DNA of 38,421 nucleotides from a virus. Its lineage: Duplodnaviria > Heunggongvirae > Uroviricota > Caudoviricetes. The stretch spans positions 1-38,421 of IMG/VR virus record IMGVR_UViG_2703718837_000008; one strand, 5' to 3'. Positions 5,251 to 17,737 of this stretch are shown here, piece by piece. A program made the position numbers and the translations under genes. Below the pieces are notes generated by a model. That model did not search any database and was not told where the DNA came from. It saw only the letters and a program-made list of their open reading frames with translations. Positions within the stretch are counted from its first letter, which is position 1; each line of letters starts with the position of its first letter.

Positions 5251-5308
5251 AAAAAGGGCGGCAGAGCAGTCGCGGAGTAAAACTGATACCGCCAAACGCC
5301 ACCAGAAA
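5251..5308 (-). ncRNA. dicF: DicF small RNA (ftsZ-targeting sRNA)
   Basis: Minus-strand sequence TTTCTGGTGGCGTTTGGCGGTATCAGTTTTACTCCGCGACTGCTCTGCCGCCCTTTTT matches the K-12 DicF sequence as I recall it (1-2 substitutions), ending in a T-run. Lies ~170 nt upstream of dicB, as in Qin. Ends are approximate. Confidence 0.75.
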
Positions 5309-9363: not shown

Positions 9364-9732
9364 GTGTTGATTTCTGGTCATGAGGTAATTTTCAGGAGGA
9401 CTTGTGGCAAAAGTTTTACACAAGAAGAGCGAGAAAAAATTAAAGGGCAGGTTGTTGAACTCGTACGCCAGAGTGGGCGTGAGACGTTACGGCAACTGGA
9501 AGTCAAGACAGGTGCGACAAGATATCTGATGAGCGTTCTCGCAAGAGAGCTGGTTGTCAGCGGCGATGTATACAACTCTGGTTACGGGTTATTCCCGTCT
9601 GAACAGGCTCGTAAAGACTGGCAAAACGCCCGCAAAAAATTATCGAGGGCAAAGCTGAAGAAACCGGTTGTGGTTGATCCGGACCTTATCTGGTCATTAC
9701 CTGACGGAGAAATCCGTCGCCTTAGTCTTTGA
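9364..9732 (+). CDS. Hypothetical protein (possibly replication-associated)
   Basis: 122-aa ORF from GTG 9364, directly after the replication gene stop. No recognised motif. An alternative short frame with a strong AGGAGG RBS (GTG ~9404) exists, so the reading frame is uncertain. Confidence 0.35.
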   Translation: MLISGHEVIFRRTCGKSFTQEEREKIKGQVVELVRQSGRETLRQLEVKTGATRYLMSVLARELVVSGDVYNSGYGLFPSEQARKDWQNARKKLSRAKLKKPVVVDPDLIWSLPDGEIRRLSL

Positions 9733-9767
9733 TAATAGGTTTATAATGTTGAAAAAGAGTCTAATAG

Positions 9768-9798
9768 TTGACATTGTATGAAATATGATTGTTATATA
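9768..9798 (+). promoter_or_regulatory. Predicted sigma70 promoter for the NACHT gene
   Basis: TTGACA (9768-9773) with TTATAT/TATATA -10 candidates at 9792-9798, in an AT-rich intergenic region ~40 nt upstream of the ATG at 9834. Confidence 0.4.
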
Positions 9799-9833
9799 AA
9801 ATGATTTTTTTGGAGACTGTTTAAGGTAAACAA

Positions 9834-12092
9834 ATGAAACCAGAATACTTAAGAAAAATAGAATCATTGCAACGTGAGGTTGATGATTTCCATCCAGTGC
9901 TAAGAGCGCTTCTACCACGTTTGCCGACTGTTACACATGTTGAATATAAGCAAGGACCATCAGAAAAAGGTGCTGATTTTGTCATAATTAAACGAGATGA
10001 GGCATTAGACGAGGAAATATATATTGGTGTTATTTGTAAAGTTGGAAAGATAATTCAGTCAAATAGTGAGGTTGAACGACAAATAGAAGAGTGTCAATTA
10101 TATCCACGCTTTATTTCTTCTGGCTCTAAGAACATACATTTGAATGAAATTTGGGTTATTACTAATTCATCGATCTCAAATAATGCTCAAGAAAAAATTT
10201 ACTTGAAATTCAAATCTACAAATATAAAATTTATAGAGGGTGAAAAAATATGTTCTTTAATCAGTAAATATTACCCAGAGTTTTGGGATTTCGAATCCAT
10301 TAATTATGAACAATACTTAACAGATACATTGCAAACCATAAGTGATACACCTGAAAGTTCTTTTTTTGGTAGTGTTGGCATAAATAACCTTATTGATAGA
10401 TATGTAAGCAAGGAGGATCATAAAAAACGCAGACACAGGCCGTTAAAACTGTATAGTGTTGTGAGAGCCGAGAGATTTATTTTTTTAGAGGGAACCGTTG
10501 GCTCTGGGAAAAGTACTTTGCTGAAACAGTTAATTAGAAAAATAAAAGAAGAATATTCTTACGAAAAAGACTACATCCTTCCAGTATTTTGTCAATACAA
10601 GGATGTTCTAGAAAAAAAACTTAATGTTGAAAATATAATACAAAGTGTGTTAAGTAAGTACAAAATACAACATGATGGGAATATTTTATTAATTGTTGAT
10701 TCGGTTGATGAAGTAAAGGAATCACTTGAGGAAAGGCAAAACAACTTCAGGGACATTGTAGAGAAAGTATCCAGGAATGATAAAGTTCGATTACTAGTTG
10801 CTTCAAGAATTATGGATTCTCTTCAGGACTATGAAGTTATCGATCAGATGTTTGCAAGATACTCGATAATACCACTTAGCACAGGTCAAATAATCGACTT
10901 TGTAGATAAAATCTGCAATGACATTAAAATAACAAATAAACTTAAAAATGGTATAGAAAAAACACCACTATTTAAGTTCATTCCCAGGACTCCAGTGAGC
11001 GCTATTCTTCTGGCAAGAATACTCTCTGATGAGATTAAAGAATTACCATCTACAATGACAGAACTATACTCAAAATACAGTGAGATAGTATTGGGACGAT
11101 GGGATACATCTAAGGGATTATTATCGCAAACAGAATATGATGTAATAAGTAATATATTAGTAGAAATTGCGATGTTTATGATGGATAACTCTCTAAACTG
11201 CATATCAATTTCAGAAGTGCAGGACATGTTTTTAAATTATTTGGCCAAAAGAAACTTGAATGTTGATGAGGACAAACTTTTCAAAAGACTAATTTATCGC
11301 AGTGAAGTAACAACAGTTAATGTTAGAAGTAATACGTTCTCATTTCTACACAGATCATTCATGGAGTATTTTTACGCTGAAGGACTTAGGAAGCGTGGCC
11401 TAATAGACATAAATGATAATATTTATGATATTTATTGGGCAAATAGTTATTTCTTCTATTTTGGTTTGTTACGAGACAATGAATATCTTATTGATAAAAT
11501 TAATGAACTTAAACCTAGTAACGATAAAACAAGATTTTTAAGGTTGTTTTATAACGGTTCTTTTTATTTGGCTTCATATCTAACTCCGTATAAAAAAATA
11601 ACGAGGGGAGTCCTTTTATCATATATAGATGCAGGTAAATTATATGTTGATATTCTCAAGGGAAATACCGACATCCCGCTGAAGGAATTTTCACCAGTAG
11701 CTCTTCTTTGTATTTTCACAAAGTGTTTAAGTAACAATTACGCATATGATTTTTTCAAATCTGCCTTGGAAGACTTGTCAGTTCAAATTGAACAATATGA
11801 GGAAATTGGTGAACATATTGATTATGCACGTTTCTTCATAGCATCAACACTGAATGAGCTCGGGGATAAATCCGCATTTGATAGCTTAGTGGAAAAAAAT
11901 AAATTAGGTGTTTTGATTAATTTAGGGATAACTCACGTTACAGACGACTCAGGACTACTTAGCACTACGGTTGATAAGTACCTGAAAAAATTCAATAAAA
12001 AAGTACGAAGTAACCATGATATGTCTAATTATATATCTAAGTTATATGAGGAATCTACAGGTTCCTTACGTACAAACCTGCAAATTCAATAA
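9834..12092 (+). CDS. NACHT-type STAND NTPase with N-terminal PD-(D/E)xK-like nuclease domain (bacterial NLR-like antiphage candidate)
   Basis: 752 aa. Walker A FLEGTVGSGKST (aa ~217-228). Walker B with NACHT signature ILLIVDSVDE (aa ~285-293). NACHT winged-helix motif SFLHRSFMEYFYAEG (aa ~502-516). N-terminal GADFVIIK...EIYIGVICK resembles an Mrr-like D...E.K nuclease core. Strongly AT-rich relative to the flanking phage genes, with its own promoter and a 13-bp stem hairpin after the stop. Confidence 0.7.
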   Translation: MKPEYLRKIESLQREVDDFHPVLRALLPRLPTVTHVEYKQGPSEKGADFVIIKRDEALDEEIYIGVICKVGKIIQSNSEVERQIEECQLYPRFISSGSKNIHLNEIWVITNSSISNNAQEKIYLKFKSTNIKFIEGEKICSLISKYYPEFWDFESINYEQYLTDTLQTISDTPESSFFGSVGINNLIDRYVSKEDHKKRRHRPLKLYSVVRAERFIFLEGTVGSGKSTLLKQLIRKIKEEYSYEKDYILPVFCQYKDVLEKKLNVENIIQSVLSKYKIQHDGNILLIVDSVDEVKESLEERQNNFRDIVEKVSRNDKVRLLVASRIMDSLQDYEVIDQMFARYSIIPLSTGQIIDFVDKICNDIKITNKLKNGIEKTPLFKFIPRTPVSAILLARILSDEIKELPSTMTELYSKYSEIVLGRWDTSKGLLSQTEYDVISNILVEIAMFMMDNSLNCISISEVQDMFLNYLAKRNLNVDEDKLFKRLIYRSEVTTVNVRSNTFSFLHRSFMEYFYAEGLRKRGLIDINDNIYDIYWANSYFFYFGLLRDNEYLIDKINELKPSNDKTRFLRLFYNGSFYLASYLTPYKKITRGVLLSYIDAGKLYVDILKGNTDIPLKEFSPVALLCIFTKCLSNNYAYDFFKSALEDLSVQIEQYEEIGEHIDYARFFIASTLNELGDKSAFDSLVEKNKLGVLINLGITHVTDDSGLLSTTVDKYLKKFNKKVRSNHDMSNYISKLYEESTGSLRTNLQIQ

Positions 12093-12103
12093 TAAATAGA
12101 TTG

Positions 12104-12138
12104 TCACATTGAAGGTAACGTATCGACCTTCAATGTGA
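12104..12138 (+). terminator. Perfect 13-bp inverted repeat hairpin after the NACHT gene
   Basis: TCACATTGAAGGT-(9 nt)-ACCTTCAATGTGA. No strong T-run follows, so it may be a terminator or a protein-binding palindrome. Confidence 0.4.
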
Positions 12139-12460
12139 TGATTATCCTCTTGATAATATAGCTTAAGCTACTTTCGACTTTCTGAGACACAGAGATTGCA
12201 GAATGTATCAATCATAGTGAAGCTATCGTAAATGTTCGCACGTCGCTCAAATCAGATAGTCATATTTGAGTGAACTGCTTACTCAAAATGCTGGTTGGGG
12301 CCTGACTTAATACATCTGAAGAAGTGTTGGTTATGTTTGGCTGTTGTGTTCCATTGCCAAAGAAAAAATAGATAAACTATACCCAATAGTTGTATTGAAT
12401 CACTGACGAGACAGCCTCATATTTATCAGAACTGGTGTACGTCCAATACAGGAGGTTGTC

Positions 12461-12550
12461 GTGCTGGTTCTCAAATGTGCGCTGGCTATTGCAGCTGTAA
12501 TGGCAATTTATTGTCTTGCTGTTGTTCTTATGGATCGCCTTTCTGATTGA
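12461..12550 (+). CDS. Candidate 29-aa hydrophobic peptide (possible small membrane toxin)
   Basis: Perfect AGGAGG RBS 6 nt upstream of GTG. Product VLVLKCALAIAAVMAIYCLAVVLMDRLSD is a single predicted transmembrane helix. Not in the ORF track (below cutoff). Confidence 0.3.
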   Translation: MLVLKCALAIAAVMAIYCLAVVLMDRLSD

Positions 12551-12704
12551 TTTTATATTGGCGAGGTGACGTGAGTTAAGTAGAATTGCTGCGGGTGCTT
12601 GAGGCTATCTGCCTCAGGCATGAACACCAAAGGCAGATAGAGAAAAGCCCCAGTTAACATTACGCGTCCTGCAAGACGCTTAACATTAATCTGAGGCTCA
12701 ATCT

Positions 12705-12917
12705 ATGAACGGCAAATCTAGGTTAGCCTCTTACGTGCCGAAAGGCAAGGAGAAGCAGGCTATGAAGCAGCAAAAGGCGATGTTAATCGCCCTGATCGTC
12801 ATCTGTTTAACCGTCATAGTGACGGCACTGGTAACGAGGAAAGACCTCTGCGAGGTACGAATCCGAACCGGCCAGACGGAGGTCGCTGTCTTCACAGCTT
12901 ACGAACCTGAGGAGTAA
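12705..12917 (+). CDS. mok-like overlapping reading frame (translational coupling frame for hok)
   Basis: 70-aa ORF in the same frame that contains the entire hok ORF, as in hok/mok loci. Confidence 0.4.
   Translation: MNGKSRLASYVPKGKEKQAMKQQKAMLIALIVICLTVIVTALVTRKDLCEVRIRTGQTEVAVFTAYEPEE
12762..12917 (+). CDS. hok: Hok/Gef family type I toxin
   Basis: 51-aa product MKQQKAMLIALIVICLTVIVTALVTRKDLCEVRIRTGQTEVAVFTAYEPEE matches the HokD/RelF sequence as I recall it. Followed by fbi-like 3' complementarity and a terminator. Confidence 0.85.
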   Translation: MKQQKAMLIALIVICLTVIVTALVTRKDLCEVRIRTGQTEVAVFTAYEPEE

Positions 12918-15677: not shown

Positions 15678-15753
15678 GGCCCTTTAGCTCAGTGGTGAGA
15701 GCGAGCGACTCATAATCGCCAGGTCGCTGGTTCAAATCCAGCAAGGGCCACCA
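15678..15753 (+). tRNA. tRNA with CAU anticodon, probably tRNA-Ile2 (lysidine type; Met not excluded)
   Basis: 76 nt, manually folded. Acceptor GGCCCTT/AAGGGCC, D-stem GCTC/GAGC, anticodon loop CTCATAA, T-loop TTCAAAT, 3' CCA encoded. Resembles E. coli ileX as I recall it. Confidence 0.8.
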
Positions 15754-15754
15754 A

Positions 15755-15831
15755 CCGCCACTAGCTCATCAGGAAAGAGCGTCAACCCTTTAAGTTGAGT
15801 GTGCGAGGTTCGAGTCCCCGGTGGCGGTCCA
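15755..15831 (+). tRNA. Atypical tRNA-like gene, anticodon UUU by loop position (Lys-like) with C33
   Basis: 77 nt, manually folded. Acceptor CCGCCAC/GTGGCGG, D-stem GCTC/GAGC, perfect anticodon stem TCAAC/GTTGA, loop CCTTTAA, T-loop TTCGAGT with one T-stem mismatch, CCA encoded. C at position 33 and C1 are unusual. Confidence 0.5.
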
Positions 15832-15833
15832 GT

Positions 15834-15909
<76 letters not shown>

Positions 15910-15912
15910 TAT

Positions 15913-15987
<75 letters not shown>

Positions 15988-16347
15988 ACAGTAGACGAAA
16001 TCTGGTTGTATTAGGCACTGACATATTGATATGTGGGGCGTTTTCCTGATTTCTTACCGCGTCCTGTTCTGTAATATGAGATGCAGATTACAGTCCAGTG
16101 CCATTTTTTTTACAATAATGGTATGGTGCATTGTCGGTGGAGATTTTGTATTTCCTGGCAGGGGCTAATGATGCACCATCCCAGTGTTGTAAATAACATC
16201 ATAGAGGCGTTCCTCAGCGCGAGGGTGGTTTAAAGAGTCGGTTTAGCGGGAAACCACAGTATCTGCTGTCTGGGCAGGTATTTCGGGAGGCCCCCGACGC
16301 CTCGATTTTCATTACAATAAAAATGATTTATCTCATGCATTGACTAA

Positions 16348-16372
16348 CCGCCGTATCTGGCGGTTTTTTTTA
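16348..16372 (+). terminator. Rho-independent terminator in the tRNA-to-lysis intergenic region
   Basis: CCGCC-GTATCT-GGCGG hairpin followed by nine Ts. Confidence 0.6.
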
Positions 16373-16518
16373 TTCACAAACCCGGTTTTTATGGCTCGCC
16401 ACGGTGGGCTTTTTATATCAGCATTGTCCCCTGAAATTATAGCTTATTAGATTGCTGCGTCTGAAAAACTATATTATTTACATAAACTATACCATCCGTG
16501 CTCCACGGAGGTAAGGCT

Positions 16519-16734
16519 ATGAAATCCATGGACAAAATCTCAACTGGCATTGCCTACGGCACCTCCGCAGGCAGTGCTGGCTACTGGTTTTTACAGTGGC
16601 TCGATCAGGTCAGTCCGTCACAGTGGGCTGCAATTGGTGTGCTGGGAAGTCTAGTTCTGGGCTTTTTGACTTATTTGACGAATGTGTACTTCAAAATCAG
16701 AGAAGACAGACGAAAGGCTGCGAGAGGTGAATAA
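16519..16734 (+). CDS. Class II holin / pinholin (phage 21 S-like) with dual-start motif
   Basis: 71 aa starting [23 protein letters not shown]..., matching S21 (antiholin from Met1, holin from Met4) as I recall it. GGAGG RBS. Two predicted TM segments. Confidence 0.85.
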
Positions 16735-17231
16735 TGCCTCTATCATTACGAAAAGCCGTTGCTGCTGCTATTGGTGGCGGAGCAATTGCTATAGCATCAG
16801 CGTTAATCACTGGCCCAAGTGGTAACGATGGTCTGGAAGGTGTCAGCTACATACCATACAAAGATATTGTTGGTGTATGGACTGTATGTCACGGACACAC
16901 CGGAAAAGACATCATGCTCGGTAAAACGTATACCGAAGCAGAATGCAAAGCCCTCCTGAATAAAGACCTTGCCACGGTCGCCAGACAAATTAACCCGTAC
17001 ATCAAAGTCGATATACCGGAAACAACGCGCGGCGCTCTTTACTCATTCGTTTACAACGTGGGGGCTGGCAATTTCAGAACATCGACGCTTCTTCGCAAAA
17101 TCAACCAGGGCGATATCAAAGGCGCATGTGATCAGCTACGTCGCTGGACATATGCTGGCGGTAAGCAATGGAAAGGGCTGATGACTCGCCGTGAGATTGA
17201 GCGTGAAGTCTGTATATGGGGGCAGCAATGA
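16734..17231 (+). CDS. SAR endolysin (lysozyme with N-terminal signal-anchor-release domain)
   Basis: 165 aa. Gly/Ala-rich weakly hydrophobic N-terminus ([20 protein letters not shown]) followed by a lysozyme-like catalytic region. TAATG overlap with the holin stop. Confidence 0.8.
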
Positions 17232-17695
17232 GCAGGTTAAACGCGATTATCTCCGCTCTGATTATCTGCATCATCGTTTGCCTGTCATGGGCTGTTAATC
17301 ATTACCGTGATAACGCCATCGCCTACAAAGAACAGCGTGATAAAAAAGTCAGTGAGCTGAAGCAGGCGACCGCCACCATCGCTGACATGCAGCAGCGTCA
17401 GCGTGATGTTGCTGCGCTCGATGCAAAGTACTCGAGAGAATTAGCCAATGCGAAAGCTGAAAATGAAACTCTGCGCGCTGATGTTGCCGCTGGTCGTAAG
17501 CGCCTGCGGGTCAATGCCAGTTGCTCCGCAGTCGTGCGTGAAGCCACCGGACCCACCAGCGTGGATAATGCAACCAGCCCCCGACTGGCAGACACCGCTG
17601 AACGGGATTATTTCACCCTCAGAGAACGGTTGATGACGATGCAGAAGCAACTGGAAGGGGCGCAGGAATATATCCGCACCCAGTGCATTAAGTAG
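17228..17695 (+). CDS. Spanin inner-membrane subunit (Rz-like)
   Basis: 155 aa from ATG 17228 (ATGA overlap with the endolysin stop). N-terminal TM helix, then coiled-coil periplasmic domain. Confidence 0.75.
17463..17633 (+). CDS. Spanin outer-membrane lipoprotein subunit (Rz1-like), embedded in the +1 frame of Rz
   Basis: 56 aa [17 protein letters not shown]... with lipobox VSAC and a proline-rich mature region. Wholly inside Rz. Confidence 0.7.
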
Positions 17696-17737
17696 CCTTT
17701 TTATCGTGGTAAACATTTCGCAGGGTATGAGGTATTT

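Follow-up and report, generated by a model that had tools for sequence, protein, structure and literature searches.

A probable natural allele of the NLR-like antiphage protein bNACHT25 as cargo of a dicB/DicF lambdoid prophage

Introduction

The clade-6 bacterial NACHT protein bNACHT25, which originates from E. coli ECOR11 (Kibby et al. 2022/2023) and is named under accession WP_001702659.1 by Conte et al. 2025 (PMC12169576), defends its host against T2, T4 and MS2-like RNA phages. Once activated, bNACHT25 degrades DNA, including plasmid (host) DNA, and a D48A exchange removes both the defence and the DNA degradation (PMC12169576). The MS2 coat protein alone activates bNACHT25 and does not co-immunoprecipitate with it, and the known activators, i.e. 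MS2 coat protein, MS2 L and proteins of T-even phages, are unrelated to each other (PMC12169576). bNACHT25 responds to the synthesis of phage proteins indirectly, via the host chaperone DnaJ. The system needs host dnaJ, and dnaJ J-domain mutants fail to complement; the published mechanism is incomplete, also with regard to the substrate of DnaJ and to the ligand that activates bNACHT25 directly (PMC12169576). The H506L variant is hyperactive without DnaJ and toxic without phage, and S508P is a hyperactive variant as well. H506 is the equivalent of NLRC4 H443, mutations at these equivalent positions are hyperactivating, H506 and S508P mutants of bNACHT25 are toxic, and adding D48A relieves this toxicity in the H506 mutant (Kibby et al.). 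The second tested clade-6 protein, bNACHT32, is likewise antiphage and dependent on D48, as seen with D48A, and on dnaJ (PMC12169576).

Two further groups need to be considered. Avs proteins with Mrr-like effectors (e.g. Avs4, PDB 8dgf) are built around a STAND core that is not a NACHT, and their large TPR-like sensors directly contact terminase or portal, whereas the protein analysed here has a true NACHT module and a short helical NCH1 domain, and the published sensing by bNACHT25 is indirect, via DnaJ. The signature D[GAS]hDE, which is present in our protein, divides NACHT from other STAND NTPases according to the definition of Kibby et al. With the animal NLRs NLRC4, NLRP3 and NOD2, the protein has the NACHT fold in common, and the winged-helix histidine is conserved, but LRRs, CARD and PYD are absent, a nuclease effector is fused instead, and the identity is about 12-16%.

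Results

The window, i.e. the whole stretch of DNA that was analysed, comprises 38,421 nucleotides of a virus record (IMG/VR IMGVR_UViG_2703718837_000008). An initial annotation, made by reading the raw sequence alone, had pointed to a candidate bacterial NLR-like antiphage protein in this window, and this was borne out: the encoded protein shares 99.1% identity with bNACHT25 (745 of 752 residues, WP_001702659.1, equal length of 752 aa), whose antiphage activity has been validated by experiment. With a probability of roughly 90%, the window carries a naturally occurring bNACHT25 allele, and thus a single-protein, NLR-like abortive-infection defence system that is carried as cargo by a lambdoid prophage. 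The cassette, the gene and its domains are located as follows.

9721..12318, + strand: AT-rich cargo cassette with a single gene (32.1% GC), placed between DUF977 and hok/sok in a variable slot of a lambdoid prophage
9834..12092, + strand: coding sequence of the 752-aa bNACHT25 allele, a clade-6 bacterial NACHT/NLR-related antiphage protein, as judged by sequence identity
9834..10283, + strand: Mrr-like PD-(D/E)xK nuclease effector domain, aa 1 to about 150 (Mrr_cat, fold)
10446..11393, + strand: NACHT module, aa about 205-520 (Pfam NACHT, invariant residues, Foldseek)
11559..12056, + strand: NCH1 domain, aa 576-741 (Pfam PF22728, 133 bits, E = 1.2e-38)

The open reading frame starts with ATG, and the identical 752-aa frame is found in the RefSeq annotation of related genomes. 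Its GC content is 32.0% (GC3 26.7%), and the whole block 9721-12318 is similarly low in comparison with the 51.3% GC of the remaining window, so the gene is indeed AT-rich against its phage neighbours. As a frame of 2.26 kb stays open in DNA of 32% GC, a chance ORF is excluded. Homology to ETEC1717, the closest prophage without the gene, breaks at 9720 and restarts at 12573, and as the segment 12319-12572 is common prophage DNA that occurs in 1750 E. coli genomes, the gene-specific cassette spans positions ~9721-12318 (about 2.6 kb). It carries one gene, in line with the single-gene insertion that had been proposed.

The window protein shares with bNACHT25 the domain order Mrr-like REase, NACHT, NCH1, and D48, K226, D289-E293, H506 and S508 are all kept. 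The seven substitutions (window residue first: I109V, R235K, V265I, N315S, S499T, T590A and K609H) all lie in columns that are variable in an alignment of 62 relatives. T590A and K609H are both inside the presumed sensor domain, and they could shift specificity. At the codon level, 43 synonymous differences from bNACHT25 face 7 non-synonymous ones, a ratio that indicates purifying selection on the protein. Only 2 residues differ from WP_033801850.1. bNACHT32 (WP_057688292.1) has the same architecture and is 82% identical in a gap-free alignment (614 of 749 residues), but it belongs to a separate 90%-identity cluster, mostly from the Enterobacter cloacae complex, and is absent at the DNA level from 5426 complete E. 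coli genomes. Closeness to both tested members, the N-terminal PD-(D/E)xK effector domain and the C-terminal NCH1 domain all place the protein in clade 6.

The gene is rare, as it occurs in 18 of the 5426 complete E. coli genomes, and a “distant” DNA search of the same set yielded neither paralogues nor bNACHT32-like copies beyond these 18 genomes. As about 6 of the 18 copies are frameshifted or truncated, the gene is frequently lost or costly. The exact window allele is present on 14 independent contigs. In the INPHARED phage collection, neither a DNA nor a protein match was obtained, and the gene is thus absent from the sequenced phages of INPHARED.

The nuclease-like nature of the N-terminus, which had been suggested on the basis of short residue patterns, is supported by profile and fold comparisons. 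The isolated N-terminal domain matches Mrr_cat with 22.3 bits (cut-off 21), 23 of 24 relatives match the same family, and the fold search returned FokI/AspBHI/Mrr-like folds as well as MspJI. GADFVIIK covers aa 46-53, with the aspartate D48 at 9975-9977, and EIYIGVICK covers aa 61-69, with K69 at 10038-10040. D48 and K69 are invariant and are positioned in the model on the strands that are expected for catalytic residues. The motif itself is non-canonical, as residue 67, which takes the (D/E) place of (D/E)xK, is I or V in all 62 relatives, and 9 of the 24 relatives also show weak matches to the Pfam family “NACHT-associated inactive REase 1”. For these two reasons, the assignment of catalysis relies on the published D48A phenotype and not on the motif. 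Of the nuclease residues that had been proposed for mutation (D48, E61 and K69), D48 is the one exchanged in the published nuclease-dead allele D48A, and K69 is invariant, but E61 has to be rejected as a catalytic residue, since only 25 of 62 relatives have E here. A second acidic ligand may be supplied by the invariant E105 or the near-invariant E86.

In the NACHT module, all three hallmarks named in the initial annotation were located, and their key residues are conserved among the 62 relatives. Pfam NACHT (PF05729) matches aa 214-353 with 37.8 bits at a gathering cut-off of 26.7. The Walker A sequence GTVGSGKST covers aa 220-228 (10491-10517) and conforms to the P-loop pattern GxxxxGK[ST] (G220-TVGSG-K226-S227), with G223, G225 and K226 being invariant; K226, which had been named as a site for mutation, is therefore the correct Walker A lysine. 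The Walker B sequence ILLIVDSVDE (aa 284-293, 10683-10712) contains the D[GAS]hDE signature as D289-S290-V291-D292-E293, in which D289, D292 and E293 do not vary and residue 290 is always G, A or S (62 of 62 relatives). The winged-helix motif SFLHRSFMEYFYAEG corresponds to aa 503-517, with H506 at 11349-11351. H506 is invariant, F504, R507 and F509 are nearly invariant, and position 508 is S or T in every family member and S in the window protein. R325 is also invariant in the family.

The assignment as a NACHT/STAND NTPase is further supported by the NCH1 match and by the full-length model, for which Foldseek gave matches to NLRC4, NLRP3, NOD2 and NAIP5, with E = 1e-9 to 1e-7 for animal NLRs. 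The NCH1 region is all-helical in the AF2 model. The short C-terminal region had been taken to suggest a compact variant, but this is the standard clade-6 bNACHT architecture, which has about 750-770 aa across gammaproteobacteria. Avs3 and Avs4 were also among the fold-search results, and the 50 top-ranking fold matches listed contained no bacterial NACHT structure. When PDB sequences were searched, both with the whole protein and with a profile of its N-terminus, only armadillo-repeat/RhoGAP noise (E > 0.03) came back. PADLOC-DB 2.0.0 gave only weak matches to the P-loop region (best HerA, E 1.6e-06; mad8 and others); since no Avs model was matched there, membership in Avs/AVAST was rejected. 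No NCBIfam model was reached at its cut-off by the window protein.

The signals and flanking genes around the reading frame are the following.

9364..9732, + strand: left flank, DUF977 gene truncated at its 3' end, at the cassette junction (Pfam DUF977, 54.6 bits)
9768..9798, + strand: promoter-like elements, TTGACA 9768-9773, a 19-nt spacer and TATATA 9793-9798 (read from the sequence)
12104..12138, + strand: perfect 13-bp inverted repeat, 12 nt past the stop codon (folding)
12593..12917, + strand: right flank, hok/sok type I toxin-antitoxin locus (Rfam sok, 111.7 bits; Pfam HOK_GEF, 81.6 bits)

That the gene has its own promoter, as had been claimed, holds in part. The perfect TTGACA speaks for it, as does the 101-bp upstream region, which is nearly the same as the one preceding the ECOR11-type bNACHT25 gene. 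However, the best -10 element lies at a distance of 19 nt, and because of this spacer length a sigma-70 consensus scan called no promoter upstream of the ORF. A Shine-Dalgarno-like AAGG is found at 9823-9826. The perfect 13-bp hairpin at the end of the gene is as described, with 13-nt arms at 12104-12116 and 12126-12138 that are 100% complementary and enclose a loop of 9 nt. The stem can be prolonged to 18 pairs (dG -23.2 kcal/mol, z = -5.35), and the hairpin region is nearly identical downstream of ECOR11-type bNACHT25 as well. A terminator scan did not call it as intrinsic terminator, as no T-run follows and the loop has 9 nt, and it is possible that the RNA hairpin serves as a weak, T-run-less terminator or as a 3' stabiliser.

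The left-hand DUF977 match reaches only from position 3 to position 99 of a profile of 134, other prophages are homologous up to 9720, where the homology breaks off, and RefSeq flags the equivalent DUF977 gene as “incomplete, missing C-terminus”. On the right, the sok RNA match covers 12593-12767, and the mok/hokD ORF covers 12705-12917. bNACHT25 has the same immediate neighbours, as a truncated DUF977 gene precedes it and the hokD region follows. The window gene lies directly downstream of the replication module of the prophage. It had been placed at the position of a DnaC-like loader in a Rac-type prophage, and neither part of this placement can be maintained: the window prophage is of the dicB/DicF (Qin-like) lambdoid type and has an HK97-type head, and the gene lies in the variable slot that DUF977 and hokD delimit. 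The complete-genome carriers of bNACHT25 that were examined do have Rac-type modules (ydaT-ydaV upstream), but also in these carriers ydaV, the DUF1627 gene and the DUF977 gene are all upstream of the bNACHT gene.

Discussion

The protein as such is already known, as the bNACHT25 defence, its nuclease effector and its DnaJ-dependent sensing are published, and we add nothing new to this work at the protein level. From the identity, it is expected that the window allele behaves as bNACHT25 does. What the protein senses had been regarded as not knowable from its sequence, but for bNACHT25 this has in part been worked out by experiment (PMC12169576). In a mechanism of this kind, the lysogen would presumably produce the protein constitutively from the gene's own promoter, and the NACHT module would keep it inactive and nucleotide-bound, with H506 stabilising the OFF conformation. 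Infection by T2, T4 or MS2-like phages would then lead to an abundant synthesis of phage proteins, and this output would be sensed indirectly via the co-chaperone DnaJ with DnaK, not by direct binding of a phage protein. NCH1 is presumably the sensing part. The NACHT module would turn on, probably by oligomerisation, and the Mrr-like PD-(D/E)xK nuclease with D48 and K69 would degrade DNA and thereby halt the infected cell and the phage. Such a cell shutdown would protect the clonal population together with the prophage.

Which alternatives exist for this indirect sensing? The protein could in principle be a direct pattern-recognition receptor like Avs1-4, with NCH1 binding a conserved phage protein and DnaJ merely folding or presenting that protein, so that DnaJ would not be what is guarded. 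Many bacterial STAND proteins do sense phage structural proteins directly (10.64898/2026.01.04.697583), the Avs3 and Avs4 folds were returned in our searches, and the path from coat protein via DnaJ to bNACHT25 is not fully resolved according to its authors (PMC12169576). However, proteins as unrelated as MS2 coat protein, L and T-even phage proteins all act as activators, the coat protein is not co-immunoprecipitated with bNACHT25, J-domain mutants of dnaJ do not complement, and the PADLOC defence models gave no convincing match but only marginal ones to the P-loop region. We therefore consider direct recognition improbable.

Somewhat less probable still is that the gene is a silent or decaying passenger, i.e. 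H-NS-silenced AT-rich DNA or a pseudogene-to-be that gives the lysogen no native protection. A gene of 32% GC inside a prophage of 51% GC, a promoter that the scan did not call, the rarity of the gene (18/5426) and the defects in about one third of its complete-genome copies would all be compatible with such a fate, but 752 codons stay open in AT-rich DNA, the excess of synonymous over non-synonymous differences argues for selection on the protein, and the exact allele recurs on independent contigs.

In view of the Mrr_cat match, the fold similarity to AspBHI and MspJI, which are modification-dependent enzymes, and the modified cytosines in T2 and T4 DNA, one might instead of an NLR-type abortive-infection switch consider a type IV (Mrr/McrBC-like) restriction enzyme that depends on NTP and on DNA modification and directly attacks the DNA of the incoming phage. 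This reading has a negligible probability and already conflicts with what has been published on MS2 and its coat protein, as bNACHT25 defends against an ssRNA phage and degrades plasmid (host) DNA when active, as the coat protein alone is a trigger and H506L is toxic without any phage, and as the NTPase is a NACHT module with D[GAS]hDE and not a McrB-type AAA+ motor.

For the bNACHT25 allele, a further role within the prophage may be considered. Lambdoid phages need DnaJ/DnaK for their replication (PMC12169576), and as the trigger of bNACHT25 also involves DnaJ/DnaK and the gene lies downstream of the replication module, it could also respond when its own prophage or another lambdoid prophage in the same cell is induced, and thus serve as a brake or as an inter-prophage weapon. 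That this is the case, and that the DUF977-hok/sok interval is at the same time a defence hotspot, appears unlikely, though not as unlikely as direct recognition of phage proteins. T590A and K609H might tune such a response.

The reading of the raw sequence alone sufficed to pick out an NLR-like defence gene and even D48, the residue that was mutated in experiments. Standard resources give the protein only the label “NACHT domain-containing protein”, and neither PADLOC-DB 2.0.0 nor the NCBIfam models mark the gene as one with validated defence activity. What the window does add is the genomic context. A literature search on DUF977 as prophage defence hotspot yielded nothing relevant. Between DUF977 and hok/sok, lambdoid prophages may have a defined hotspot for defence genes that is driven by recombination and in which new systems could be sought. 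Where the window carries bNACHT25, the same interval of other prophages contains a PP2C phosphatase together with a Ser/Thr kinase, an FRG-domain protein, or Drt2 with a RipA-family protein, so that the slot swaps defence-type cargo, i.e. known or candidate defence genes such as Drt2. The bNACHT25 gene is now documented in a second prophage background, as the dicB/DicF lambdoid type is added to the Rac type. In the one bNACHT25 carrier with a visible attachment site, this site adjoins ttcA.

Identity of the window protein

The gene under study and the sequence motifs quoted for it in the initial annotation are the following:

9834..12092, + strand: ORF of 752 aa (window translation)
aa 46-53: motif GADFVIIK, containing D48
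aa 61-69: motif EIYIGVICK
aa 220-228: motif GTVGSGKST, containing K226
aa 284-293: motif ILLIVDSVDE
aa 503-517: motif SFLHRSFMEYFYAEG

All quoted motifs were found, with the residue numbers as given. The main interpretation, a NACHT antiphage protein, is correct as well, as is the underlying observation. The window protein and bNACHT25 (WP_001702659.1) are identical at 745/752 positions. Judged by this comparison, the window protein is an allele of a defense protein that has already been characterized and is therefore already known. A homology search gave a 100% identical E. coli entry that heads a 285-member cluster, and a family of 750-770-aa proteins in Enterobacteriaceae, Pseudomonas, Marinobacter and others. 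The second characterized protein of this kind, bNACHT32 (WP_057688292.1), belongs to a neighboring cluster and shares 82% identity with the window protein (both accessions from PMC12169576). WP_001702659.1 is annotated at the homologous locus of E. coli LC-1302-2020. Relative to bNACHT25, the substitutions are I109V, R235K, V265I, N315S, S499T, T590A and K609H (window residue first), every one in a variable alignment column, and the codon differences are 43 synonymous and 7 non-synonymous. The 101-bp region upstream of the gene is almost identical in sequence to that upstream of the gene of the ECOR11 type.

Domains and nuclease active site

Pfam profiles place NACHT at aa 214-353 (37.8 bits; cut-off 26.7), which bears out the proposed NACHT domain, and NCH1 at aa 576-741 (133 bits). 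The Walker B region holds the NACHT-specific D[GAS]hDE signature (D289-S-V-D-E293), and the family-invariant residues include G223, G225, K226, D289, D292, E293, R325 and H506. The nuclease-like N-terminus was also recovered: Mrr_cat scored 17 bits in the full-length protein, below threshold, and 22.3 bits (cut-off 21 bits) when the N-terminal 165 aa were scanned alone, and 23/24 relatives matched this family in the N-terminal scan. PF22722, “NACHT-associated inactive restriction endonuclease 1”, gave weak matches in 9/24 family members (aa 1-165; window 9834-10328). Fold matches of the N-terminal domain, each with its value, are:

FokI cleavage domain: 11.3
AspBHI: 11.2
AF1548: 11.0
LlaBIII: 10.6
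MspJI: 10.3
Avs4: 8.2

In the alignment of 62 sequences, E15, E44, D48, K69, Q83 and E105 are invariant in the nuclease domain and E86 is nearly so. E61, initially named as a nuclease residue, has to be dropped from this set, as only 25/62 sequences have E there. At residue 67, where the (D/E) of (D/E)xK would be expected, all family members have I or V, and the nuclease motif is therefore non-canonical. Despite this and the PF22722 matches, the published D48A phenotype shows that the Mrr-like domain is needed for DNA degradation.

Relation to the published mechanism

Clade 6 holds bNACHT25 and bNACHT32, with PD-(D/E)xK DNase, NACHT and NCH1 domains, and D48A abolishes both defense and DNA degradation (Conte et al., PMC12169576). 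According to the same study, bNACHT25 protects against MS2-like (Emesvirus) but not Q-beta-like RNA phages, and also against T2 and T4; MS2 coat protein suffices for activation without binding bNACHT25, the system depends on host dnaJ, whose J-domain must be functional, and with H506L DNA is degraded even without DnaJ. The model proposed there is that of a guard-type sensor of chaperone perturbation. Mutation of the histidine equivalent to NLRC4 H443, or S508P, renders bNACHT25 toxic, and the toxicity of the histidine mutant is rescued by D48A (Kibby et al.). All residues on which the published experiments depend are present in the window allele, which at 99% identity would be expected to behave like bNACHT25.

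Expression signals

9768-9773: perfect TTGACA
12104-12116 and 12126-12138: arms of a hairpin 3' of the stop codon, 13/13 bases complementary

The 13-bp hairpin noted after the gene is real and can be extended to 18 pairs (dG -23.2 kcal/mol; z = -5.35 vs shuffles). No T-run follows its stem, so it is non-canonical as an intrinsic terminator. The claim that the gene has its own promoter holds only in part: the TTGACA is perfect, but the best -10 element lies 19 nt downstream of it, and the promoter scan made no call.

A cargo-exchange slot

GC content is 31-33% over ~9700-12300 vs ~51% in the rest of the window. The alignment to the prophage of E. coli ETEC1717, the closest one lacking the gene, ends at 9720 and resumes at 12573, and window 12319-12572 is ordinary prophage DNA present in 1750 E. 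coli genomes; the gene-specific cassette therefore spans ~9721-12318. At its left junction, the DUF977 gene lacks its 3' end (Pfam profile positions 3-99 of 134 are left), and RefSeq flags the equivalent DUF977 gene as lacking its C-terminus. The right flank is the hok/sok locus (Rfam sok 12593-12767; HOK_GEF match). Between DUF977 and hokD, the cargo differs:

Window (9721-12572) and Rac-type prophages: bNACHT25
ETEC1717: PP2C phosphatase and Ser/Thr kinase
LF82: FRG-domain protein
mip270_05: Drt2, RipA-family membrane protein and hypothetical protein

This interval is a cargo-exchange slot of lambdoid prophages, and the gene thus sits in a variable slot downstream of the replication genes and not, as had been suggested, at the usual site of a DnaC-like loader. 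The loader position was rejected; Rac-type carriers have ydaV and a DUF1627 gene upstream of DUF977. A systematic survey of DUF977-to-hokD intervals could reveal new defense genes.

Just upstream of hok/sok, a 29-aa hydrophobic ORF (12461-12550, +; VLVLKCALAIAAVMAIYCLAVVLMDRLSD) starts with GTG, 5-6 nt downstream of a strong Shine-Dalgarno sequence (AGGAGG), and RefSeq has no annotation there. The surrounding DNA is common to ~1750 E. coli genomes, and the peptide is kept in five other loci checked, with M/I and V/I changes only. The product may be a small membrane peptide.

Distribution

Of 5426 complete E. coli genomes, 18 carry the gene, each time on the chromosome. No sequenced phage of the INPHARED set has it. 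In three of the 18 carriers that were examined, it adjoins the DUF977 remnant or Rac-type prophage genes. Two allele groups have ~99.5% and ~97.7% DNA identity to the window, and 14 contigs carry the exact window allele, within the same prophage of dicB type. About 6/18 copies (H10, H12, H15, H16, H17, H18) carry 1-bp indels or are truncated. With about one third of the copies damaged, this nuclease-armed sensor may carry a fitness cost or be inactivated often.

Prophage type and other features

5256-5307, - strand: DicF antisense RNA (73.5 bits), adjoining dicB
15678-15984, + strand: four-tRNA cluster, downstream of the Q antiterminator
~724-1842, - strand: integrase, adjoining the ORF at 1-543

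With dicB, DicF RNA, YdaT, DUF968, RusA, Q, four tRNAs and an HK97-type head module, the window prophage is a Qin-like lambdoid, not Rac; DicF/dicB and the tRNA cluster 3' of Q are typical of this type. The lysis module (16200-17737) is unlike its counterpart in ETEC1717, in other respects the closest prophage, and resembles the essD/rrrD-type holin-lysozyme module of a Rac-type locus (L001; 87% identity); it is another mosaic junction.

At the window edge, a 180-aa ORF (1-543, +; 30% GC; N-terminus MSKNQNAKIIFVEGETEY) begins with base 1. It had no match in a Pfam search and only a weak PADLOC match to AbiLii (E = 5e-4). On longer contigs, the gene directly upstream of it, outside the window, encodes 397 aa and has no more than a faint Pfam match, to AAA_21. 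The two look like an AbiL-like two-gene defense pair at the attachment-site edge of the prophage.
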